From Heterodontus francisci (taxonomy: Eukaryota): a DNA stretch of 64,000 bases. Location: NCBI RefSeq assembly GCF_036365525.1, contig NC_090380.1, positions 22,889,271 to 22,953,270 of the forward strand. Reading direction: 5' to 3'. Below are positions 18,725 through 61,470 of this stretch, one piece after another (within the stretch, counting starts at the first letter, position 1; the number at the start of each line of letters is the position of its first letter). A program made the position numbers and the translations under genes. The notes beneath the pieces were generated by a model. The model did no database searches. It was not told where the DNA came from and saw nothing but the letters and a program-made list of their open reading frames with translations.

Positions 18725-18942
18725 ACTCTAACTCACCACCACCTCTCTTGACTTCTCTACTGTTGCTAGACTATTCGACTGCCTTTCCGACAACCAGTAC
18801 TAGATGAGCAGCAATTTCCTCCCATTAAATATTGGGAAGACTGAAGCCATCATTTTTGGTCCCTGCTTCTAACTACTTTCCCTAGCTACTGACTCCATCC
18901 ATCTCCTTGGCAACAGTCTGAGGTTAACCAGTCTGTTAGCAA

Positions 18943-19292
18943 TAAAAACAGAAAGTGTTGGAAATATTCAGGTCAGGCAGCATCTGTGGAGAGTGAAGCA
19001 GAGTTAACCTTTCGTCAGAACTGCCAATGGTTAGAAAAGAATTAGGTTTTAAGCAAGTGAAGTGGGGGGGTGGAATGGTGGTTGGTGGGGAACAGAACAA
19101 AAGGGAAGGTGTGTGATAGGGCAGAGGGCAGGAGAGATTAAATAACAAACTTGTTCTGGGACAAAGGCAAAGGGTGTGTTAATGCTGTGGTGAAAGACAA
19201 AGCATTAGTCCAGAGAGAGTGTTAATAGCAGAATAATGAGCAACTCTGTCCACATGAAAAACAGGAACATGGTTAAAAAATTTAAAAAAAAG
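18943..19292 (-). mobile_element. Penelope-like terminal-repeat fragment with a perfect 12-bp TSD
   Basis: TSD gtctgttagcaa at 18931-18942 and 19293-19304. Contains an internally deleted hammerhead remnant (reverse complement agttctgacgaaaggttaact). Confidence 0.72.
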
Positions 19293-28409: not shown

Positions 28410-29540
28410 TATTCCTTGATTTTAAAATTCTCATTTTTATTCTCCATGGCCTCACCTTTCCTTATCTCTGTAGCCTCCTACCATCCTACAAATGCCCTCC
28501 TCGCCGAGATCTCTGCATTCCTCCAATTCTGGCCTCTTGTGTACCCCCAGTTTTCATTGCTCCACCAATGGCAGCAGTGCCTCTGGCTGCCTAGGCCCTA
28601 AGCTCTGGAATTCCCTCCCTAAACCTTTCAACAATAACTTATGTCTATGTCGCACCTTTAACATAGTAAAATGTCCCAAGGGACTTTGCAGGAGGATTAC
28701 CAGACAGATTCGGACAGATGACCAAAAGCTCTGTTCTGACTTGAAACATTAACTCTGTTTCATTCTCCACAGATACTGTCAGACCTACTGAGTATTTCCA
28801 GCATTTTTTGTTTTTATTTCAGATTCCCAGCACCTGCGGTATTTTGCTTTTGACCAAAAGCTTTGTCAAAGAGATGGTTTCAAGGAGAGAAGAGAGGCAG
28901 AAAGGTTTAGGGAGGGAATTCCAGAACTTAGGGCAGTGGCAGCTGAAGGCATGGCCACTAATTGTGGAGCAATTAAAATTGGGCTGCTCAAGAAATCAGA
29001 ACTGGAGTAATGCAGATATCTCAGAGGGTTACGGGGGCTGGAGGAGATTACAGAGATAGGGAGAGGTGATCCCATGGAGGGATTTGAAAACAAGAATGAG
29101 GATTTTAAAATTAAGGCTTTGCCTAACTGGGAGCCAACGTAGGTCAGCAAGCACAGGGATGATGGACGAACGGGACTTGGTGCAAGTTAGGAGATGAGCA
29201 GCAGAGTTTTGGATGATCTCAAGTTTATGGAGAGTGGAACATTGGAGGCCGACCAGGAGTTTGTTGGAATAATGTCTAGAAGCAACAAAGGCATGAATGA
29301 GAGCTTCAGCAGCTGATGAGCTGAGGCAGGGGCGGAGTTGGGCGCCTCTCTACCTCTCACTCCTCCTTTTAAGATGCACCTTAAAAGCTACCTCTTTGTC
29401 ATCCTTTTGGTCATCTGTCCTAATATCTCCTTATGTGCTCGTTCTCAAATTTTCAATGATTATGCTCCTTTGAAGTGCCCTGGAACATTTTACAATCTTA
29501 TTTTTGCTATTTAAATACAAGTTATTGGTATTGCTGTTGC
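28410..29540 (+). mobile_element. L2 3' end interrupted by an antisense L2 (28630-29345)
   Basis: The plus-strand L2 breaks at ccctaaacctttc and resumes at gcctctctacctctc. The intervening sequence is the reverse complement of an L2 3' end. Confidence 0.78.
28731..28850 (+). mobile_element. Short Penelope-like terminal-repeat insertion with a perfect 12-bp TSD
   Basis: TSD tgaccaaaagct at 28719-28730 and 28851-28862. Begins at a hammerhead remnant gttctgac..gaaacattaact with stem II deleted. Confidence 0.75.
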
Positions 29541-30229: not shown

Positions 30230-31820
30230 ATAGAAATATAGAAAATAGGAGCAGGAGTAGGCTATTCGGCCCTTCGAGCCTGCTGCGCCATTCATTATGA
30301 TCATGGCTGATCATCCAACTCAGTAACCTGTTCCTGCTTTCTCCCCATACCCTTTGATCCCTTTAGACCCAAGAGCTATATCTAACTCCTTCTTGAAAAC
30401 ATACAATGTTTTGGCCTCAACTGCTTTCTGTGGTAGCGAATTCCACAGGCTCACCACTCTCTGGGTGAAGAAATTTCTCCTCATCTCAGTCCTGAAAGGT
30501 TTACTCCCTATCCTTAGACTATGACCCCTGGTTCTGGACTCCCCCACCATCGGGAACATCCTTCCTGCATCTACCCTGTCAAGTCCTGTTAGAATTTTGT
30601 AGGTTTCTATGAGATTTCCCCCCCCACCCCCACTCTTCTGCGCTCCAGCAAATATAATCCTAACCGACTCAATCTCTCCTCAGACGTCAGTCCTGCCATC
30701 CCAGGAATCAGTCTGGTAAACCTTCGCTGCACTCCCTCTATAGCATGAACATCCTTCCTCAGATAAGGAGACCAAAACTGCACACAATATTGCAGGTGTG
30801 GCCTCACTAAGGCCCTGTATAATTGCAGCAAGACATCCCTGCTCCTGTACTCGAATCCTCTCGCTATGAAAGCCAACATACCATTTGCCTTTTTTACCGC
30901 CTGTTGGACTTGCACGCTTACCTTCAGTGACTGGTGTGCGAGAACACCGAGGTCTCGCTGCATATTCCCCTCTCTCAGTTTATAGCCGTTCAGATAATCT
31001 GCCTTTTTCTGCTACCAAAGTGGATAACCTCACATTTATCCACATTATACTGCATCTGCCATGCATTAGCCCACTCACTCAACTTGTCCAAGTAACCCTG
31101 AAGCCTCTCTGCATCCTCCTCACAACTCACCCTCTCACCCAGTTTTGTGTCATCTGCAAATTTGGAGATATTACATTTAGTTGCCTCATCTAAATCATTA
31201 ATGTATATTGTGAATAGCTGGGGTCCTAGCACCGATCCCTGCGGTACCCCACTAGTCACTGCCTGCCATTCGGAAAAAGACCCATTTATCCCTACTCTTT
31301 GTTTCCTGTCCGCCAACCAATTTTCTATCCATTGCAATACACTACCCCCAATCCCATGCGCTTTAATTTTACACACTAATCTCGTATGTGGGACTTTGTC
31401 GAAAACTTTCTGAAAGTCCAAATAAATCACATCCACTGGCTCCCCCTCATCAACTATACTCGTTACCTCCTTGAAGAATTCTAGTAGATTTGTCAAGCAT
31501 GATTTCCCTTCCGTAAATCCATGCTGACTCTGTCTGATTCTACCACTATTCTCTAAGTGCTCTGCTATAAAATCTTTGATAATGGGCTCCAGAATTTTCC
31601 CCACTACCAATGTCAGGCTGACTAGTCTATAATTCCCTGCTTTCTCTCTACCTCCCTTTTTAAATAGTGGGGTTACATTAGCCACCCTGCAATCTGTAGG
31701 AACTGTTCCAGAGTCTATAGAATCTTGGAAGCTGACCACCAATGCATCCACTATTTCTCGGCCCACTTAAGTACTCTGGGATGCAAACCATCAGGCCTAG
31801 GGGATTTATCGGCCTTCAAT
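30230..31820 (-). mobile_element. Relatively young CR1 LINE, RT and 3' UTR
   Basis: 258-aa RT ORF 30990-31766 (QHGF, LDFQKVFDKV, GVPQGSVLGP, KFADD) plus C-terminal ORFs 30607 and 30320. Confidence 0.93.
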
Positions 31821-35229: not shown

Positions 35230-38200
35230 CTGCAAGAAACCTCCTGCTGATTACCACTTACCGGCTTCTCTCAGTTGATGAATCAGTACTCCTCCATGTT
35301 GAACAGCATTTGGAAGAAGCACTGAGGGTGGCAAGGACGTAGAATGTACTCTGGGTGGCGGACTTCAATGCCCATCACCAAGAGTGGCTCAGTAGCAGCA
35401 CTACTGACTGAGCTGGCCAAGTCCTGAAAAACCTATCTAACAGACTGGGCCTGTGGCAGGTGCTGGGGGAACCAACAAGAGGGAAAACCCTACTAGACCT
35501 CGTCCTCACCAGTCTGTCTGTTGCATAGGCATGTGTCCATGATAGGATTGGTAGGAGAGATCACCGCACAATCCTTGTGAAAATGAAGTCCCATCTTCAC
35601 TATGAGGATACCTTCCATGTTCTATGGCACTACCACCATGCGAAATGAGAGATTCAGAACAGATCTGGTAGGTCAAAACTGGGCATCCATGAGGTGCTGT
35701 GGACCTTCAGCAGCAGCAGCAGAATTGTATTCAACCAAAATATGTAACCTCATGGCCCGGCATATTCCTCACTCTACCATTACCATCAGGCCAAGGGATC
35801 AACCCTGGTCTAATAAAGAGTGCAGGAGAGCGTGCCAGGAGCAGCACCAGGCATACCTAAAAATAGGGTGTCAGGCTGGTAAAGCTACAACACAGGACTA
35901 CTTGCATGCCAAACAGCGGAAGCAGCATGCAATAGACAGAGCTAGGTGATCCCACAACCAACAGATCAGATCTAAGTTCTGCAGTCCTGCCACATCCAGT
36001 CGTGAATGGTGGCGGACAATTAAACAACTAACCAGAGGAGCAATCTCCACAAATATCCCCATCTGCAATGATGGAAGAGCCCAGCACATCAGTGCAAAAG
36101 AAAAGGCTGAAGCATTTGCAACAAGCTTCAGCCAGAAGTGCCAAGTGTATGATCCATCTTGGCCTCTTCCTGAGGTCCCAAGCATCACAGATGCCAGTCT
36201 TCAGCGAATTCGATTCACTCCACAAGTATACCGTTTTGGATACTGTTTGAGGGGGGGGGGGATGGCCTATCAGGGGAAAACAACAGCAGCAGCCAGAGCA
36301 GTGGCACCACGGCTGGCACTGTTGTTCAGTAGGGAGGGACAAAGCGCAGAAGAGCAATAAGTTATAGGGGACTCTATAGTCAGGGGCACAGATAGGCGCT
36401 TCTGTGGATGTGAAAGAGACTCCAGGATGGTATGTTGCCTCCCTGGTGCCAGGGTCAAGGATGTATCTGAACGGACAGGGGGCATTCTGAAGGGGGAGGG
36501 GGAACAGCCAGAGGTTGTGGTACACATCGGTACCAACGACATAGGCAGGAAGAGTGACGAGGTCCTGCGGGGGAGTTTAGGGAGTTAGGTAGAAAGTTAA
36601 AAGACAGGACCTCTAGGGTTGTAATCTCAGGATTACTCCCTGTGCCATGTGCCAGTGAGGCTAGAAATAGGAAGATAGTGCAGCTAAACACGTGGCTGAA
36701 CAGCTGGTGTAGGAGGGAGGGTTTCAGATATCTGGACCATTGGGATCTCTTCAGGGACAGATGGGACCTGTACAAGAAGGACGGGTTGCATCTAAACTGG
36801 AGGGGCACAAATATCCTGGCTGCGAGGTTTGCTAGCATCACTCGGGAGGGTTTAAACTAGTGTGGCAGGGGGGTGGGAACCAGAGCAGTAGGACAGCAGG
36901 TGAAATAAATGAGAGGGAACTAGTAAATAAGGCCAGTAAGACTAAGGAAGAGCAGGCAGGGAGATGTTGCTGAGCACAGCGGGACTGGTGGTCTGAAGTG
37001 CATTTGTTTCAATGCGAGAAGTATAACAGGTAAGGCAGATGAACTTAGAGCTTGGATTAGTACTTGGAACTATGATGTTGCTATTACAGAGACTTGGTTG
37101 AGGGAAGGAAAGGATTGGCAGCTAAATGTTCCAGGATTTAGAAGCTTCAGGCGGAATAGAGGGTGATTTAAAAGGGGTGGGGGAGTTGCATTACTGGTTA
37201 AGGAGAATATCACAGCTGTACTGTGGGAGGACACCTCGGAGGGGTCATGCGGCGAGACAATATGGGTGGAGCTCAGGAATAGGAAGGGTGCAGTCACTAT
37301 GTTGGGGTTTACTACAGGCCTCCCAACAGCCAGCGGGAGGTAGAGGAGCAGATATGTAGACAGATTTTGGAAAGATATAAAGGTTGTAGTGGTGGGTGAT
37401 TTTAACTTCCCCTAGATTGACTGGGACTCACTTAGTGCTCGGGGCTTGGATGGGGCAGAATTTGTAAGGAGCATCCAGGAGGGCTTCTTGAAACAATATG
37501 TAGATAGTCCAACTAGGGATGGGGCCGTACTGGACCTGGTATTGGGGAATGAGCCCAGCCAGGTGGTCGAAGTTTCAGTTGGGGTGCATTTCGGGAATAG
37601 TGACCATAATTCCGTACGTTTTAAGGTACTTGTGGATAAGGATAAGAGTAGTCCTCGGGTGAAGGTGCTAAATTGGGGGAAGGCTAATTATAACAATATT
37701 AGGCAGGAACTGAAGAATTTAGATTGGGGGCGGCTGTTTGAGGGTAGATCAACCTTTGACATGTAGGTGTCTTTCAGTTGATTAGAATCCAGGACCAGCA
37801 TGTTCCTGTGAGGAAGGAGGGTAAGTTTGGCAAGTTTTGGGAACCTTGGATAACGCGGGATATTGTGAGCCTAGTCAAAAAGAAAAAGGAAGCATTCGTA
37901 AGGGCTGGAAGGCTGGGAACAGACGAAGCCCCTGAGGAATATCAAGACAGTAGGAAGGAACTTAAGCAAGGAGTCAGGAGGGCTAAAAGGGGTCATGAAA
38001 AGTCATTGGCAAACAGGATTAAGGATAATCCCAAGGCTTTTTCTACAGATATAAAGAGCAAGAGGGTAACCAGGGAAAGGGTTGGACCACTCAAGGACAA
38101 AGGAGGGAATCTATGTGTGGAGCCAGAGGAAATGGGCGAGGTACTAAATGAGTACTTTGCATCAGTATTCACCGAAGAGAAGGACTTGGTGGATGATGAG

Positions 38201-40185
38201 CCGAGGGAAGGGAGTGTAGATAGTCTGGGTCATGTCGTTATCAAAAAGGTGGAGGTGTTGAGTGTCTTGCAAAGCATTAAGGTAGATAAGTCCCCAGGGC
38301 CTGATGGGATCTACCCCAGAATACTGAGGGAGGCAAGGGAAGAAATTGCTGGGGTCTTGACAGAAATTTTTGCATCCTCATTGGCTACAGGTGAGGTCCC
38401 AGAGGACTGGCGAATAGCCAATGTTGTTCCTTTGTTTAAGAAGGGTAACAAGGATAATCCAGGAAATTATAAGCCGGTGAGCCTTACGTCAGTGGTAGGG
38501 AAATTATTAGAGAGGATTCTTCGGGACAGGATTTACTCCCATTTGGAAACAAATGAACTTATTAGCGAGAGGCAGCATGGTTTTGTGAAGGGGAGGTCGT
38601 GTCTCACTAACTTGATTGAGTTTTTTGAGGAAGTGATGAAGATGATTGATGAAGGAAGGGCAGTGGATGTTATCTATATAGACTTCAGTAAAGCCTTTGA
38701 CAAGGTCCCTCATGGCAGACTGATACAAAAGGTGAAGTCACACGGGATCAGAGGTGAGCTGGCAAGATGGATACAGTACTGGCTCAGTCATAGACAGAAG
38801 GTAGCAGTGGAAGGGTGCTTTTCTGAATGGAGTGCTGTGACTAGTGGTGTTCCGCAGGGATCAGTGCTGGGACCTTTGCTGTTTGTAGTATATATAAATG
38901 ATTTGGAGGAAAATGTAGCTGGTCTGATTCGTAAGTTTGCGGAGTGACACAAAGGTTGGTGGGGTTGCGGATAGTGGTGAGGATTGTCAGAGGATACAGC
39001 AGGATATAGATCGGTTGGAGACTTGGGTGGAGAAATGGCAGATGGAGTTTAATGCGGACAAATGTGAGGTAATGCATTTTGGAAGATCTAATACAGGTGG
39101 GAAGTATACAGTAAATGGCAGAACCCTTAGGAGTATTGACAGGCAGAGAGATCTGGGTGTACAGGGCCACAGGTTAGTGAAAGTGGCAACGCAGGTGGAT
39201 AACGTAGTCAAGAAGGCATACGGCATGCTTGCCTTCATTGGTCGGGGCATAGAGTATAAAAATTGGCAAGTCATGCTGCAGCTGCCAGAACTTTAGTTAG
39301 GCCACACTTAGAATATTGCGTGCAATTCTGGTCGCCACACTACCAGAAGGACGTGGAGGCTTTGGAGAGGGTACAGAAGAGGTTTACCAGGATGTTGCCT
39401 GGTCTGGAGTGCATTAGCTATGAGGAGATTGATGGATAAATCCGGATTGTTTTCACTGGAACGACGGAGGTGGAGGGGCGACATGATAGCGGTTTACAAA
39501 GTTATGAGTGGCATGGACAGAGTGGATAGTCAGAAGCTTTTTCCCAGGGTGGAAGAGTCAGTTACTAGGGGACATAATTTTAAGTTGTGAGGGGCACAGT
39601 TTAGAGGGGATGTGCGAGGCAAGTGCTTTACACAGAGGCTGGTGAGTGCCTGGAACTTGCTGCTGGGGGAGGTGGTGGAAGCAGGTACGATAGCGACGTT
39701 TAAGAGGCATCTTGACAAATACATGAATAGGATGGGAATAGAGGGATACGGTCCCCGGAAGTGCAGAAGGTTTTACTTTAGGCAGGCATCATGATTGGCG
39801 CAGGCTTGGAGAGCCGAATGGCCTGTTCCTGTGCTTTTCTGTTCTTTGTTCTTTGAGATCAAGAGACGGCTGAAGGCACTGGATACTGCAAAGGCTATGG
39901 GCCCTAACAACATCCCCGCTGTAGTACTGAAGACTTGTGCTGCAGAGCTAGCCGCGCCCCTAGCCAAGCTGTTGCAGTACAGCTATAACACTGGCATCTA
40001 CCTGACGATGTAGAAAATTACCCAGGTATGTCCTGTCCACAAAAAAGACAAATCCAATCTTGCCAATTACGGCCTGATCAGTCTACTCTTGATCATCAGC
40101 AAAGTGATGGAAGGTGTCATCGACATTGCTATCAAGCGTCACTTAAACAGCAACAGCCTGCTCACTGATGCGCAGTTTAGGTTCC
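35230..40185 (+). mobile_element. Family B CR1-group LINE (endonuclease and RT start) split by a near-full-length CR1
   Basis: DFNAHHQEWL endonuclease motif on the left. KAMGPNNIPAVVLKTCA.ELAAPLAKL and ANY..ISLL..ISKVME on the right. Broken at ttcactccac | tgagatcaag. Confidence 0.78.
36224..39853 (+). mobile_element. Near-full-length CR1 LINE: ORF1 SGNH esterase, ORF2 APE endonuclease and RT (disrupted)
   Basis: ORF1 motifs VIGDSIVRG, VVVHIGTND and DGLHLN. ORF2 motifs NARSI, TETWL, YYRPP, GDFN and SDH, plus the 389-aa RT ORF 37778-38947. (ttctttg)n tail. Several stops and frameshifts. Confidence 0.95.
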
Positions 40186-42168: not shown

Positions 42169-42774
42169 GTAAGGAAGATTTTGAAAATATTTTCAGCTGA
42201 ACTGATGTAGGACCTATTCTGTAAATGCATGTCTGTCCATGTGACAGTTAATGATTTCCCACAGAATATTTACTTTGTTATAAAGCTACTTAGAAATAGG
42301 ATGGTTCTGCTGTCCGCCAGTGTAACCTCGGAGGGTGGAACTTTGCAGAACCCCAGCTTTGCTGGCTGTGTACTTGGAAAGGTTAAATGCCCCTTTGCGT
42401 GTGAAGGTCCATATCTTTCAAGATCACGAATTTGTGAAATCAGCAACATGCAGTTGAGTATATATATTTTTTTTAAAGTGTAGTTCCTATTTTGATAAGC
42501 AAGTTTCATTAGTGTCTCAGTTTTGGTTTTCCATGCGCATACTGAGCTGCCCCAGCTTCTGGGACTTCCTGTGATTGTGCAGAGAGACTGCCATCATTTG
42601 TGTGGCAATGAGCGTTTCACACTGGGCTGAAGGTTGATGATGAGCCCTAGGTGTTTTCCGAACAGCCTTCCATTCTCACAACAGCATTGAATCTTGGGAA
42701 CTTCCATTTAACATTAGGCAGGTTTTATTCGAATCTCTGTCATGCTATATAATAGTAGAGTTGGTCTTTCGATA

Positions 42775-42958
42775 AACAAAATACTATGGATGCTGGAAAT
42801 CAGCAATAAAAGCAGAAAATACTGGAAATGCTCAGCGGGTCTGGCAGCATCAAGTTGATGATGAAAGATCATCCTAACTGACCTAGAATGTTAACTCTGT
42901 TTCTTTCTCCACAGATTCTGCCTGACCTGCTGAGTATTTACTGAATTTTCTGTTTTGG
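42775..42958. mobile_element. Penelope-like terminal repeat in inverted (hairpin) arrangement
   Basis: cagaaaatactggaaatgctcagcgggtctggcagcatc is complementary to gattctgcctgacctgctgagtatttactgaattttctg. A decayed hammerhead lies in the spacer. Confidence 0.65.
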
Positions 42959-47361: not shown

Positions 47362-48571
47362 CTAAGTTTCCAATATTAATTATGCCACGCAAAGACTCCA
47401 GCAGGTTGGTTAAATATAAGTTTCCTTTCCTGAAACTGCTGTGTTTTATCAAGGTATCCTTGGCCAAGTCTTCAAGCAATGGATCTCTCAAGATCATTTC
47501 CAAAACTTCCCCTACAACTGAAGTTAAACTTACTGGTCAATGACTTCCAGCTATGTCTCTTGACCATTTTGTTAAATTGTACGTTTATATTAGCCACTTC
47601 CAATCTCGCTTCAAATTACCAAACTTGCAGGAATATCACTTGAAGCTTTACCAACTTCAGTCCTCATTTTGTTTAAGATTTAATGGTGCAAGCTTTCTGA
47701 GCGGAGCATTTGGCCTATTTAAAGAGCTGTTTGTAACCATAATATTCTTTGTAGTTGCTTACTTGCATGGTTAACTTCCTCTGTCACCATTCATAGAAAT
47801 CTGTTATTCTATTTGGACATTTTTCCCCCTCTTCCTACGTGAATATAGACATGAAATAATCACTTCATAATTCTTCCCAGATTCCAGCTTTTTATTTTAA
47901 TATCAAGTAAACTGAAAAAAAAAATCTCCATCCTTTGCTGCGTAAAGTTGCAACAAACCTCTGCGCTCTCAGCACATTCAGTGTTTTACTTGGCTTCCTT
48001 TTTTGTCTGTGTTTGCTTGTCTTCATAATTGACCTAATTCTGCTGCTTACTGGATTCCTTGCACTTTTATTGCCTCTCCCTAACATTCATCTTTATGTCC
48101 CTACTTAATCATCTTAACCTCTTTAGCCCTATTTTATGACTTGAATAGAATTCATTTTGATTGCAGCCTCAGCAGTATTTCCTTAAATATGTATTATCTT
48201 TTATAAACACAAGCATCTTTGTGCTCCAATTAATCTACTTGCAAGCAATTTAGTGCTTCCTCAAAGTTTGTCCTTTGTAGTCCAGTACTTTTCTCTTGCT
48301 GTTCCGTTTGCTTATTGGTATAAGCATTGTAGTTCAGCAGTCAGCTTCAGAATAACATTGGTGAGTGCTTGAGAGGATGTTTTCTTGGCTAGAGATGGTA
48401 TTCTGCATAGGAAAATCCAAGAAAGGAAGGGCAAGAAAATACATCACCAAGGCTGAGTCCACAAAAGAAGAGCAGATGAAGGAAAACATGTTTTTAAAAT
48501 TTAAGATGTACGTAGTTGTTCAAGGACTTTGTTTTTATAGCTGCTAACGTCCAGATCATGCTACTTTACAG

Positions 48572-48711
48572 TGCCAGCTTGGAGTCCTGCCACTGGGAAC
48601 AGGAAATGACCTGGCACGAGTCCTCGGCTGGGGTGGCTCATGTGATGATGACACACAGCTTCCGCAGATTCTGGAAAAATTGGAACGGGCCAGCACCAAA
48701 ATGTTAGACAG
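48572..48711 (+). CDS. DGKH: DGK-eta-like exon: DAGKc (PLGTGNDL motif)
   Basis: ctttacag|TGC...GACAG|gtatgt. Encodes [46 protein letters not shown](R). 140 nt, phase 0 to 2. Confidence 0.93.
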
Positions 48712-48732
48712 GTATGTGCATGTGTGATTGGC

Positions 48733-50320: not shown

Positions 50321-51448
50321 TTTTAATTACAAAGGGTCGTGGAAATATGGAACCCTCTCCTCAAAAAGCTGTTGAAATTGGAGCCCAATTGAACATTTCA
50401 AAACTGATATTGACAGTATTTTATTAGGTAAGTGTATTAAGGGTTATGGAACAATGTTGAGTAGGTGGAGTTAAATACAGATCAGCCATGGTCTAATTGA
50501 ATGGCAAAATAGGCTTGATGGGCTAAATAGCCTACTGTGTTCTATGTTTCTCTCGAGCACTCTGGCACCAAATGGGCAGGGAAAGAGGAGTGCTGCAGCT
50601 CTTATAGGGCCACTGTTGCTGACTTGGATTGTTCAAGCTGGTCATTTGAAGACATTTTGAAGAGCTATGAATAAACTGAAAAATCATTTTTTTATAGTTT
50701 ATTCTGATGCAGAAATAATTTCAAAATCCTGATTTGGTTAATGTGTTTATAGGTAAAATCGTCAGTAAAACCATTCCTGTCTCAGTGTTAGCAGCAGAAC
50801 CACCTGGAACTGGATATTTGCATCGTCAGAACTGAAGTTCAGGAGTAGCAAATGTTCTGAAGCAGTGACAATGCCTCACCTCTTCTAACCATGTCAAGCA
50901 GAGCAGTTCATTTGAGAGTTCTGATTAGATTGTTATGAATCCTCACACATAAGCATCTGTTCATTACTTAATGTAGCCTGTGCTTTGACACTGTTTCTCT
51001 AATTGAGATACTATATTCTCTTGAATATGAAACTGTTTAAAAAAAAAAAATTAAGAAGGACATGCATTTATATAGTGCCTTTCACAACCTCAGGACATCC
51101 CAAAGGGTTTTGCAGCCAATGAAGTACTTTTGAAGCATAGTACGGTTGTATTGTAGGAAATATTGTAGCCTGTATGTGTACAGTAAGATCCCATTGCAGG
51201 CCTGACGATATCAAGTTGCAGTACATGACCAATATGTTCATGTTAGTTCAGTGTCCTCTTGCTTACGCTCTCTAACTTGGAGATGTAGGATGGAGTTTGT
51301 GCTCACAATTCCCCAAGTCATGAGTTTCCCATCTTGATTGTGTTGGCAGAAGGAAAATGGACTCTTCAGCCTTGAAAGAGGCATATGAGAAGCGACCTTA
51401 TAGACACACAATATGTGCTAAGGGGAATAGAGCAACTTAAGTCAGGCT

Positions 51449-51484
51449 GTTCCGAAGATGGGTCACTGACCCGAAACGTTAACT
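51449..51484 (+). ncRNA. Minimal type I hammerhead ribozyme motif (one core mismatch)
   Basis: gtt-CCGAAGA-t-GGGTC-act-GACCC-GAAACGT-T-aac. Core CUGANGA is present with U4>C, plus a 5-bp stem II, GAAA, palindromic ACGU stem III and gtt/aac stem I. Activity not shown. Confidence 0.6.
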
Positions 51485-51547
51485 CTGCTTCTCTTTCCAC
51501 AGATGCTGCCAGACCTGCTGAGTGATTCCAGCATTTCTTGTTTTTGT
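51451..51547 (+). mobile_element. 97-bp Penelope-like terminal-repeat insertion with a perfect 14-bp TSD
   Basis: TSD ttaagtcaggctgt at 51437-51450 and 51548-51561. Confidence 0.8.
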
Positions 51548-51569
51548 TTAAGTCAGGCTGTGTTTGCTG

Positions 51570-52405
51570 ACAACACAACCACTATGTGGCGCAGTACTTG
51601 CACATGCGCAAATGCAGCCTCATGCACTGAAACGCCACTGTCTGCAATGTTTATGGCAGCTGCCAGTAGTAAAGACGGCGCTGCTCAATTTATCACAAAA
51701 ACAAATGAAACCCAAATGCCCACAGTGGCTGTGATCGCCGTCTCTGTCCCACCCCCAACAGTACCCTGCTCCTTTCTGCCATTGCGCTTCGCCGCCGCCT
51801 CCCGCGCCTGTCTACTCGCCATTTGCTCCATGCCTCACCACTTCTCCCCCCTTGGCCACTTGCCGTCCGCTTCACCTCGCCACCACCACCCACCCCCTAC
51901 TCCACCTGTGGTCCACTGGCTCCCGGCCTTGCCGCTTCATCCCCTCTGCCGCTGCTCCTTGCTCCCTCCTGCTTCTGCTCCCGGCTCCGTCCGCTTGCAG
52001 TCTCCCTCCCCTCCCCTGCCTATCTTGTCACTCTCTCTTGCCCCCGCTTCCCCCGTGCGGTGAAGAAAGGCAGTGATTGCGAGAGGGAGCAGGGATCAGA
52101 AGTGGGAGGGAGGAGGAAACCGAGCAGAGGGGAGTAAGTGACAACGCGGGGAGTGAGTGGCCCACAGGTAGATGCAGGGGTGAAGTGGGGAGCGAGCGGC
52201 TGAGGGGAGAGAAGTGGCGAGGCGGGGAGCGAGTGGCGAGCAGACTTTGCAGTACATGATGATGTTTTCATGTGCATACGCGAATTAGTCCTGGCAAGCC
52301 AGGCGCAGCACCATACTGACAGCAAGGGTCCGTTCTGCGCATGTGCGAAGCTGGGAGTGCTCTGATGATGTTGGCACTGGGCAGTGTTGTAGGGGTCACT
52401 TTGTT
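51570..52405. other. GC/CpG-rich interspersed element of uncertain class
   Basis: CpG-dense, pyrimidine-rich then purine-rich halves. Inverted gcacatgcgca / tgcgcatgtgc motifs near the two ends. Confidence 0.45.
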
Positions 52406-53264
52406 TTTAAAAGACAAAATCAGTTTTTATTATTCTTCTGAGTTTAGTCCATGATTGTTGTATCATCGCACTTCTGGTGTGTGCGTGACAGTGAGAAAAT
52501 TTCCAGCTCTTTATGATATGCTACTTTTCAATTGATTATTCGAAGATATCCCCAAGCAACCTTGAATGAGGAACCGTATCTTACTGTCCCAAAGCACAGG
52601 ACCCTGGCAGTTGTTGCAATGCAATTGTTACCTCACATTTACCTCTATCCTTCCTGTCCTGTATGTGGAGGTCCAAGGCTAAGATTTGACAAAGACCAAA
52701 TGTGACTTCTGAGCAGGGAGCTCTGATTTGTATATCTGATGAGCAGCAATGATGGTAGTAATTGTTGTGAGGACATTTAAAATTATAGGTGCCATGCTAA
52801 AATATGACAGTCGTTCACCAAATTTGGAATAAGTCGAAAAGAATCTAGCTTGGAAAGATGAATGTTTTAAATGTGCACTCCCCATGATTTATTTCTGTGT
52901 TACTTATCAAAAAGATACATTCCCTACAAAAATAATTGAAATCCATTTAGTTATTAATAAATTAATAATGGGAAATTAGCGAAATCATTTTAACATGAAA
53001 AATGGATTCAGTGTAAATCCCCTGAGCTCTCTTTGATGTCTGGAGCTGATCACAGCACTGTGGCATTGATTTCTACCTGCTATTTTATACAAAATGTTGT
53101 TGTAAATCAATTTATCAATGAATTGGATGGGAAGTGTTTCCATTCTTTTAATTAAGAGTTTGTATCAATTTGCAGAAGTAGAGTCATGACCAAGGCAAGA
53201 TCTCTTTGTATTGATGTAAATGACCTCATTGTAATAATGGACGTAGTTGAATCATACTGATATA

Positions 53265-53400
53265 CAAAAACAAAATACAGCGGATGCTGGAAATCTGAAA
53301 AAAAAACAGAAAATGCAGGAAATTTGCAGCAGATCTGGCAGCAGCTGTAGAGAGAGAAACAGTATTAAGGTTTAGCATCAGATGGAAGGTCACACACCGA
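53265..53400 (-). mobile_element. Penelope-like terminal-repeat fragment
   Basis: aaaacaaaatacagcggatgctggaaatctgaaa...cagaaaatgcaggaaatt..cagcagatctggcagcag matches the other copies. Confidence 0.65.
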
Positions 53401-58639: not shown

Positions 58640-59740
58640 ATATATTGGCGCGGATAGAAGATTGGCTCGCTAACAGGAAACCGAGTGGGCATAAATGGGT
58701 CACTTTCTGGTTGGCAAGATGTAACGAGTGGTGTGTCACAGGGATCTGTGGTGGGGCCTCAACTTTTTACAATTTATATAAATGACTTGGTTGAAGGGAC
58801 CGAAGGTATAGTTGCTAAATTTGCTGATGAGACAAAGTTAGGTGGGAAAGTAGGTTGTGAAGAGGACATAAGGAGGCTACAAAGGGATATAGATAGGTTA
58901 AGAGAGAAGGCAAAAATCTGGCAGATGGAGTATAATGTGGGAAAATGCGAAGTTGTCCATTTTGGCAGGAAGAATAACAAAGAAGCATATTATTTAAAAG
59001 GTGAGAGATTGCGGAGCTCCGAGATGCAGAGGGATCTGGGTGTCCTAGTGAATGAATCGCAAAAGGTTAGTATGCAGGTACAGCACGTAATTAGGAAAGC
59101 TAATAGAATGTTATCGTTTATTGTGAGGGGAATTGAATACAAAAGTAGGGAGGGAGCTTCAGCTATACAGGGCATTGGTGAGACTATATCTGGAGTACTG
59201 TGTACAGTATTGGTCTCCTTATTTAAGGAAGGATGTAAATGCATTGGAAGCAGTTCAAAGAAGGTTTACTTGACTGATTCCTGGAATGGGCAGGCTATCT
59301 TTTATGAGGAAAGATTGGACAGGCTAGGCTTGTATCCGCTGGAATTTAGAAGAGTAAGAGGCAACTTGATTGAACCATATAAGATCCTGAGGGGTCTTGA
59401 CAGGGTGGATGTGGAAAGGATGTTTCCCCTTGTGGGAGAATCTGAAACTAGGGGTCACTGTTTAAAAATAAGGAGTCGCCCATTTAAGACAGAGATGAGT
59501 CTTTTTTTCTCAGAGGGTCGTGAGTCTTTGGAATTCTCTTCCTCAAAAGGCAGTGGAAACAGAGTCTTTGAATATTTTTAAGGCAGAGGTAGATAGATTC
59601 TTGATAAGCAAGGGGGTTGAAGGTTATCGGGGGTAGGTTGTAATGTGGAGAAATCAGTTCAGCCATGAAATTATTGAATAGCGGAGCAGGCTCGAAGGGT
59701 TGAGTGGCCTACTCCTGCTCCTAGTTCGTATGTTCTTTTG
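58640..59740 (+). mobile_element. CR1 RT and 3' end nested in an older CR1 fragment (58230-59840)
   Basis: ORF 58685-59581 (SGVSQGSVVGPQLF, KFADET). The older CR1 tail resumes at gaaggttatgggg. Confidence 0.9.
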
Positions 59741-60164
59741 TTTATATGAAGGTTATGGGGATGGAGTGGGTCAATGGATGAGGCGGGTAAATGTTGACAT
59801 GGATTGGCTGGGCTGAATGGCCTGTCTTGTAGCTTCTTAGTATTTTTCCATGGTGTAGCGTTCCTGTTATTATAGAACAGCCTATCATCAGACTCATTGC
59901 AAGCAATGTCGTGAGACATCACTGCGACAAACTCACAGTCTTGCTTTGCAATGGTTAATATAGTAATATGTTGTACAGTATTTGAAGCTGCTTAAGTCAA
60001 ATGTAATTTGTTTACAGTGTTCCCTTGGTAAGTAAAGATCACAGCATAACATATTGCAATACTGAATGTTCAACCAGCTGATGGTTTGTATATTCTTGTG
60101 CCTCCAATGTTATATTTGGTCAGCAGATGGTAATTAAATAAGAACTGCTTTTGTTTTTGCACAG

Positions 60165-60249
60165 ATGGAGCATTATGACGTATGAAATAAAAATACCACC
60201 AAAACATGCCCTAGCAGTGACCCCAGAGGAGGATGCTGAGGAGTCCCAA
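60165..60249 (+). CDS. DGKH: DGK-eta-like exon: end of DAGKc and start of the type II catalytic-domain insert
   Basis: tttttgcacag|A...TCCCAA|gtgagt. Encodes (R)WSIMTYEIKIPPKHALAVTPEEDAEESQ; WSIMTYE is eta-like. 85 nt, phase 2 to 0. Confidence 0.88.
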
Positions 60250-60924
60250 GTGAGTATTCAGCATTGCAAAATGCATGCAAACTTTGAGTTACAGAACATC
60301 ATTTTGCTCTCAGCTGGAATGTGAAAGAATAAATCTGCTAAGGCTGGACTCCAGTCCTGGAACTTTGCTTCATGAGAGAAACTTGCCTCAAGCTCCATTA
60401 CAGTCCGTTGCTGCAAAAATTGGGAGCACTGCAAATCAGATGTACTATCCTGCACTGGGAGTGAAGCTTAGGAAAATCTAGCCGATATTTTTTAAAAACA
60501 AGGGTTTTAAGTTTTTATGAATAATATTGAGAAATATCGATGCAAGAGAAGCCAGAGGTGTTTTCTGTAAAACAGTAATAATGTTGGGTACATTTGGTCT
60601 GTGGTTACCATTGCAAATGTTTTGGACACACGGTGAAGCTTGTTGTTTGTGCTGTGTGCAAATATTAATCTGGCAAGCTGTTCTGTAATGATTGCCTCTG
60701 GATAAATGTTGCTGATGAATTTACAAGCCCAGTAAAGCGTTGAAGCAATGTCTGATCATGAATTTCTCCTGATCTTATGCATTTTCTAGTAATCTATATA
60801 TTTTAAAAGCAATGTCCTCCCACTTTTGCTGTCCTTGATAGAATGGTAGCTGCATGAATGCGGAAGATTATTTGCCTTAATGCACTATTCCCTGGAGGGA
60901 CAGGAAGAGTCAATTGACCTACTC

Positions 60925-61151: not shown

Positions 61152-61470
61152 CTAAAGCAAAATACTGCAGACTCTGGTAATCTGAAATTAAAACAGAAAA
61201 CGCTGGAAAACACTCAGCATCTATGGAGAGAAAATAGAGTTAACATTTCAGGTCCATGACCTTTCATCACAACTGGAGGATGTTACAGATTTAACAATTT
61301 CTAAGCAAGAACAGAGGTCAGGAAAAGGAGGCGGGTGGGAGGAAAGAACAAATGGAAAGGTCTCTGATAGCGTGGAGGACAGGAGAGATTAGGTAATAAA
61401 AGGCATGATCCGACAAGGCAAGTGCGGGACAATTAAAGAAACAAAAGATGGGTCCAAAGGAGAGTAGATG
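61152..61470 (-). mobile_element. Penelope-like terminal-repeat fragment with a hammerhead remnant
   Basis: Homologous to 18943-19292. The reverse complement of 61238-61274 is AGTT-GTGATGA-A-AGGTC-ATG-GACCT-GAAATGT-T-AACT. Confidence 0.72.

Follow-up and report, generated by a model that had tools for sequence, protein, structure and literature searches.

A 97-bp insert in a DGKH intron of Heterodontus francisci as a piece of a Penelope-like element end repeat with an inherited U4C hammerhead core

Judged by its sequence, the 97-bp insert at positions 51451..51547 (+ strand) of the Heterodontus francisci DNA analysed here (64,000 nucleotides, hereafter the window) comes from the end repeat of a young Penelope-like element that is very abundant. 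It corresponds to +4..+100 of the pseudo-LTR of the autonomous element, numbered from the A of TCAGTT, the predicted RNA start (+1). We propose, with a probability of about 0.68, that an uncut RNA served as template, with reverse transcription beginning near +101 and continuing off the end at the predicted start +1, and that the C at position 4 of the hammerhead core (U4C, or C4) was inherited. The result bears on the disputed need for hammerheads in the transposition of Penelope-like elements, for which cleavage and circularisation have been proposed (PMC4209133), uncut RNA has served as the in vitro substrate (PMC11167929), and a merely parasitic role of the hammerheads has been considered (PMC8557442).

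The insert is bracketed by TTAAGTCAGGCTGT, which stands at both 51437..51450 and 51548..51561 (+ strand) as a perfect 14-bp duplication that can be extended on neither side and that encloses exactly 97 bp, as the preliminary description had claimed. Each end shows a 2-bp microhomology: the last two bases of the left copy (GT) are also element +2 and +3, and the first two of the right copy (TT) are also +101/+102. The Penelope piece was inserted at the edge of another repeat, whose first 7 bases are the last 7 of the duplication, and the presence of these 7 bases to the left of the insert as well supports a genuine target duplication. Compared with the repeat of an intact element, the insert is identical at 95 of 97 positions and differs at +12 and +79. 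The neighbouring repeat (51555-52410) is an older dispersed sequence of ~860 bp that starts with AGGCTG, contains an internal inverted GC-rich part and matches its relatives at ~92% at the start and ~75% overall.

Sequence, folding, and column and pair counts over 240 copies place a minimal type I hammerhead motif at 51449..51483 (+ strand), in agreement with the fold and palindromic stem III described beforehand. Stem I pairs GUU (51449-51451) with AAC (51481-51483), and its first two 5′-strand bases lie inside the duplication while also matching the family. There follow the core CCGAAGA (51452-51458), an extra U (51459), stem II as GGGUC-ACU-GACCC (51460-51472), GAA (51473-51475) and the palindromic ACGU of stem III (51476-51479), with the predicted cut 3′ of U 51480. 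Stem II, GAA, A15.1-U16.1, H17 and stem I are thus all in place, and the rest of the repeat up to the first cluster of 3′ ends at +93..+109 (51484..51547, + strand) includes a pyrimidine tract ending in CAG. Folding of a natural family copy gave pair probabilities of 0.96-1.0 for stem II and of 0.18-0.51 for stem I, which is weak and forms part of the time. The 125-mer folded no better than its shuffles (z = 0.0). An Rfam search with E-values up to 10 gave no match to a hammerhead model; minimal motifs may fall outside these models. Unconstrained co-folding of two copies favoured an extended stem II duplex over a dimeric hammerhead, which is weak evidence either way.

Two positions within the motif stand out. 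The C at core position 4 (51453, + strand) is shared with the young family and with the intact elements, whereas the copy counts identify the unpaired base between A9 and G10.1 (51459, + strand; element +12) as the only private change in the motif, an A>T (A>U in the RNA) that occurs in 36 of 28,188 copies. Because older subfamilies have CUGAUGA, we regard the motif with its U4C core as a hammerhead by descent. The expectation of a family consensus with CUGANGA therefore held for the older subfamilies and failed for the young one, which has CCGAAGA.

Searching the genome with the unit returned many copies of 98-100% identity, whose flanks contain the end of a GIY-YIG frame upstream and the start of a reverse transcriptase (RT) frame downstream. 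At three loci, the order repeat-ORF-repeat is seen with a period near 3.3 kb, so that the supposed Penelope-type origin is borne out by RT and GIY-YIG frames flanked by the same sequence, and the full-length elements that had been suggested as a search target exist. The 924-codon frame encodes an RT with a C-terminal GIY-YIG nuclease and visible DKG, YIDD and VY..YIG motifs; the Pfam matches to RVT_1 (E 7.5e-6) and GIY-YIG (E about 1e-3) are both below the curated cut-offs. By hand count, ~121 of the best 150 protein matches lie in open frames of at least 900 codons, some of them in tandem arrays. Between RT and nuclease, the frame has a CX4CxxC linker (CNRRRCNTC), and a CX2-5CxxC linker is a mark of the Neptune and Nematis clades (PMC8557442); the parent element would thus be a candidate for the Neptune/Nematis type. 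Homologue searches with the ORF found unnamed proteins only, and no solved structure matched it.

The parent element occurs with direct repeats, partial tandems, inverted partners and a 30-40 bp tail. Arrays of three to four full-length elements were found at G000:C2:92976981-92987618, G000:C384:916977-933211 and G000:C22:4572803-4580142; the period is constant within an array and varies from array to array (3280-3315 bp), and there are some head-to-head blocks.

The ATG lies at +173, beyond both clusters of 3′ ends described below. Upstream of +1 there are a CCAAT, a CACCC and, at about -30, a TTATAAT (TATA-like box at -31..-23), and the start itself reads TCA+1GTT. We take CCAAT, CACCC and TATA upstream of +1 to be a polymerase II promoter layout, and +1 is accordingly a putative polymerase II start. 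A TATA plus initiator has been noted in a rotifer repeat (PMC3846280).

The preliminary description had proposed that U4C crippled this one copy because an active self-cleaver in a host intron would be selected against. In favour of this idea, U4C lowers cleavage in vitro (PMC3088659), the copy lies in sense orientation in an intron, and Xenopus retrozymes are depleted in introns (10.64898/2026.07.22.740005). The copy counts refute it, and we consider it highly improbable: exact 35-mer counts over the genome gave 28,188 copies with C4, 1,303 with U4 and 1,164 with a G5A control change. Because C4-G5 is a CpG, a U4 count close to that of the control is what decay of a C4 master is expected to give. 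The cores beside intact frames are uniform as well, with CCGAAGA in 39 of 39 matched cores at 20 loci chosen for intact frames; with a downstream anchor at the same loci, 38 of 40 read CCGA and the other two are truncated ahead of the core. These comparisons indicate that the C4 core is inherited from the parent elements and was not gained in the intron.

A subfamily that is older and carries an A-U pair at the stem II base gave 5,501 matches. Among the 100 of these that were listed, counting by eye found 94 CUGA, three CCGA, two CCAA and one CUAA, and the lack of CCAA (2/100 listed) indicates that U4 is original in this subfamily. A middle class combines U4 with G-U at the base of stem II and accounts for 17 of 30 loci. 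For the 124 copies that could be parsed out of 155 unselected ones, the pair 10.1-11.1 is A-U in 20, G-U in 29, G-C in 75 and A-C in none. Mean divergence from the column majorities falls from 8.6-10.9% in U4/A-U through 3.3-5.8% in U4/G-U to 0.5-1.8% in C4/G-C, which argues that C4 is derived. The stem II pair appears to have been retained across the two steps, which would represent two events in masters rather than many independent ones. The genome thus holds a natural series at the stem II base, from U4/A-U and U4/G-U to C4/G-C, and many intact frames and tandem arrays belong to the C4/G-C stage. It is likely that the family spread either without a need for RNA self-cutting or with a core change that is usually considered to weaken it; in a viroid, U4C is reported to have lower activity in vitro and to be tolerated and infective in vivo (PMC3088659).

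The ends of the copies suggest how the insert was made. Our main sample comprises the first 100 matches on contig C1 to a 29-mer that lies 3′ of the predicted scissile bond (53,640 matches in total), and a second sample comprises 100 older, mostly U4 copies (32,827 matches in total); all unselected samples lie within the initial 17 Mb of a single contig. In the main sample, 32 copies have their 5′ end at +1..+9, six at -6..-1, 12 at +10..+20, one at +21..+30, none at +31..+37 and four later, with the remaining 45 upstream of -6. The 3′ ends fall into two clusters, with 52 at +93..+109 and 46 at +130..+146, one between them and one reaching into the ORF. The older U4 set also has 38 of 100 5′ ends at +1..+9, and three at +32..+36 that include one spurious short match. 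There is thus no 5′ peak at the scissile bond in the main set and none above background in the older U4 set, and this missing pile-up at the cut site argues that the templates were uncut at +33 in both age classes.

Short copies make up 55 of the 100, and 28 of these have an inverted partner or fragment. Among the 27 solo short copies, 21 start at -6..+9 and 16 are flanked by a duplication of 8-18 bp, compared with six of 702 swapped-flank controls, which supports retroposition with target duplication. Head-to-head pairs consist of one short and one long arm in 11 of 12 cases. An extra G before the start is expected from a copied cap. The base just before +1 is G more often than A (14 vs 6, p = 0.018), a weak signal from one of three junction tests, and T before +2 is not enriched (p = 0.37). 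We rejected a splice-acceptor origin of the 5′ pile-up (CTAAT..TTTGTCAG ends at +2): the 13 copies that begin at +3 share no common upstream exon, and +1/+2 are retained in many copies. Our literature search yielded no description of copies that run off at a mapped start.

In the reading that we prefer, the reverse transcriptase of the element would start inside uncut RNA near +101 and run off the RNA at the predicted start +1, yielding a short run-off cDNA. The source RNA would be a full element or a promoter-bearing solo repeat, and the two 3′ clusters would represent two internal priming sites, as in the Anolis element, in which two adjacent internal priming sites are described and hammerhead mutants leave insertion unaffected (PMC11167929). 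The two clusters also fit the 30-40 bp tail known for such elements.

The short copies might instead be 3′ tails left by normal retrotransposition with ordinary 5′ truncation, and the pile-up at +1..+9 would then reflect cDNA fold-back or microhomology at the quasi-palindrome TTCNGAWGAA and at stem II in place of an RNA end. We consider this unlikely, even though such elements are known to show 5′ truncation and to have inverted partners, tails and palindromes at their junctions (PMC8557442; PMC3846280) and some junctions here are perfect palindromes with centres near +3 or +13. The pile-up is also present in the solo copies that lack an inverted partner, a hairpin would halt the enzyme on reaching the 3′ side of the fold (+25 or +37), yet no peak is seen there, and full-length elements traverse the same sequence unstopped. 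Fold-back joins may nevertheless supply part of the pile-up, because 28 of the 55 short copies have inverted partners or fragments and several junctions lie in the local palindromes at +3 and +13. At the 5′ junctions of several short copies (L053, L060 and L099), a few inverted bases of the copy's own 5′ end suggest fold-back of the cDNA before joining.

The 97-bp unit had also been regarded as a non-autonomous mini-element, which would propagate itself from an internal promoter and be copied in trans by a Penelope-like protein. The large share of short copies fits this idea, as does a CCGAUGA subfamily found in 10 of 28 short but only two of 30 long copies (p = 0.009), a skew which implies that the sources of short and of long copies are not wholly identical. 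Penelope of Drosophila virilis has an internal promoter (PMC2377424), and rotifer repeats alone can drive integration in trans (PMC3846280). A separate lineage is nonetheless improbable in our view. The ends vary between copies, short and ORF-bearing copies have common haplotypes with no diagnostic change, and the T12 variant, at 0.13% of copies, occurs on several backgrounds that include full-length elements. The TATA-like box at -31..-23 lies outside the unit, which is therefore without the upstream TATA region, and the Anolis protein needs RNA well 3′ of the priming sites (PMC11167929), which is missing from a unit ending at +100. Copying in trans from solo repeats that carry the promoter is possible, as is an internal promoter in the unit.

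The run-off model has to be extended for the long copies. Of 23 full-length elements, none has its outer 5′ end at -6..+9; this end lies at +14 or later in three and between -17 and -209 in 10, and the other 10 extend past the fetched stretch. Among copies that reach +10, a stop at -6..+9 is seen in 0 of 20 full-length elements versus 38 of 83 unselected copies (p = 4e-5), so that a second type of template has to be added. The two repeats of one element show 1.2 differences per 495 bp (6 of 10 pairs identical) versus 8.6 between elements, and tandem units differ at 0-1 positions within an array versus 5-33 between arrays. This near-identity makes the long copies look like repeated copying of one unit, and the uniformity of arrays could also reflect later local duplication or assembly collapse.

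The long copies would require a template without a stop at +1, such as an RNA circle or a short cDNA transferred to the 3′ repeat. Three routes fit. A circle that arises when the hammerhead cleaves and the ends are ligated is a tentative candidate, as is, with equal weight, an upstream promoter from which transcription reads through arrays that are uniform already; passage of the short cDNA to the 3′ repeat is slightly less probable. Of the three, the circle alone would require an active C4 ribozyme. A more speculative and rather unlikely extension is that the stubs of ~100-140 bp are integrated 'strong-stop' cDNAs, which would be primed in the 5′ repeat, copied to the capped start and normally transferred to the 3′ repeat as in LTR elements. 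If this were true, full-length and tandem copies would arise via transfer and hammerhead cleavage would be dispensable, which would explain how U4C could reach fixation in the recent subfamily with the greatest success.

The repeats of metazoan Penelope-like elements were already known to contain minimal hammerheads (Cervera and De la Pena 2014, PMC4209133), and short duplication-flanked pieces of such repeats are a known kind as well; the present analysis adds U4C at the level of the master elements and the end statistics. The motif here shares with those described there the type I fold, the extra base A9/10.1, G10.1-C11.1, the palindromic 15.2-16.2, the missing loop 3 and the short stem I, and it likewise occurs in both repeats, mostly as a single motif tied to truncated copies. 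It differs in that the masters have CCGAAGA, whereas in the part of that paper cited here the core variant is U3-A8 and no shark is named, and in its stem II of 5 bp and near invariance over tens of thousands of copies. Our literature search found no U4C core fixed in intact Penelope-like elements; the catalogue of Penelope-associated hammerhead variants by Lunse et al. 2017 may already list the change, and supplement file 1 of PMC4209133 may likewise be relevant. The same core change has been described in a viroid, where it is rare and sits in a full hammerhead with tertiary contacts (PMC3088659), whereas here it is fixed in a minimal motif that belongs to an expanding retroelement.

With Neptune and Nematis elements (Craig et al. 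2021, PMC8557442), the parent element shares a single ORF with RT followed by GIY-YIG, the CX4CxxC linker, the DKG motif, partial tandems, an inverted partner and an optional one-end tail of 30-40 bp; unlike in the description of those clades, we saw no microsatellite targeting in the loci examined. Similarly, in Poseidon of Anolis carolinensis (Frangieh et al. 2024, PMC11167929) the tail is defined by two neighbouring sites of internal priming, and the template is uncut RNA, the cleavage site being without reads in the data cited. There, however, the ORF starts in the hammerhead and the core is canonical, whereas the present element has its ATG at +173 and a U4C core. Animal non-LTR retrozymes (PMC7229834; 10.64898/2026.07.22.740005) are also short hammerhead-bearing derivatives of Penelope repeats, but they are tandem units running from hammerhead to hammerhead, whereas the insert is a single duplication-flanked piece that begins in stem I and not at the cut site. 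We found no tandem short hammerhead units: close pairs among the 100 copies are head-to-head, and the direct repeats of the element lie 3.3 kb apart around the ORF.

The host intron belongs to DGKH. To locate its exons on the + strand, we used tblastn together with short peptide motifs that we take to be those of DGK. The upstream exon (48569..48715, + strand) matches shark DGK eta at 98% and the downstream exon (60154..60258, + strand) matches shark eta at 89% versus 39-42% for delta; both occur in spliced contigs, and contigs of runs X3 and X4 join 48707 straight to 60161. The insert thus lies in sense orientation within a DGKH intron, as had been described. The RNA runs found consist of contigs, none of which showed an empty allele of the insert site, a result that carries no weight.

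The insert carries a single hammerhead motif, and the only other relative found in the same intron is antisense. Older partial copies of the repeat family lie in DGKH introns at 28735-28851 and 42875-42957 on the + strand and at 42774-42852, 18937-19073, 53266-53381 and 61153-61312 on the - strand, with 42774-42957 forming a head-to-head pair; the relatives found across the window and a further 40 kb are old and incomplete and occur on either strand. Because the motif is single, the intron offers it no intact partner of the same strand and a 4-bp palindrome is the sole dimer contact, the intronic copy is most likely inert. Self-cleavage of the DGKH pre-mRNA would depend on a trans partner that four base pairs hold in place, and even canonical minimal motifs are described as having no activity as monomers and low activity as dimers (PMC4209133). 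Special selection on this copy is an unnecessary assumption; it is probably an ordinary single copy with no effect on DGKH.

A likelier effect on the host than self-cleavage would come from 51484-51502 (+ strand), where TTAAC, which is like a branch point, together with a pyrimidine tract and CAG gives the sense strand a likeness to a 3′ splice site; no use of this stretch was seen in the contigs of the runs examined. Long RT-like frames of other retroelements also lie in DGKH introns, at 37760-38944, 58658-59578 and 30993-31766.
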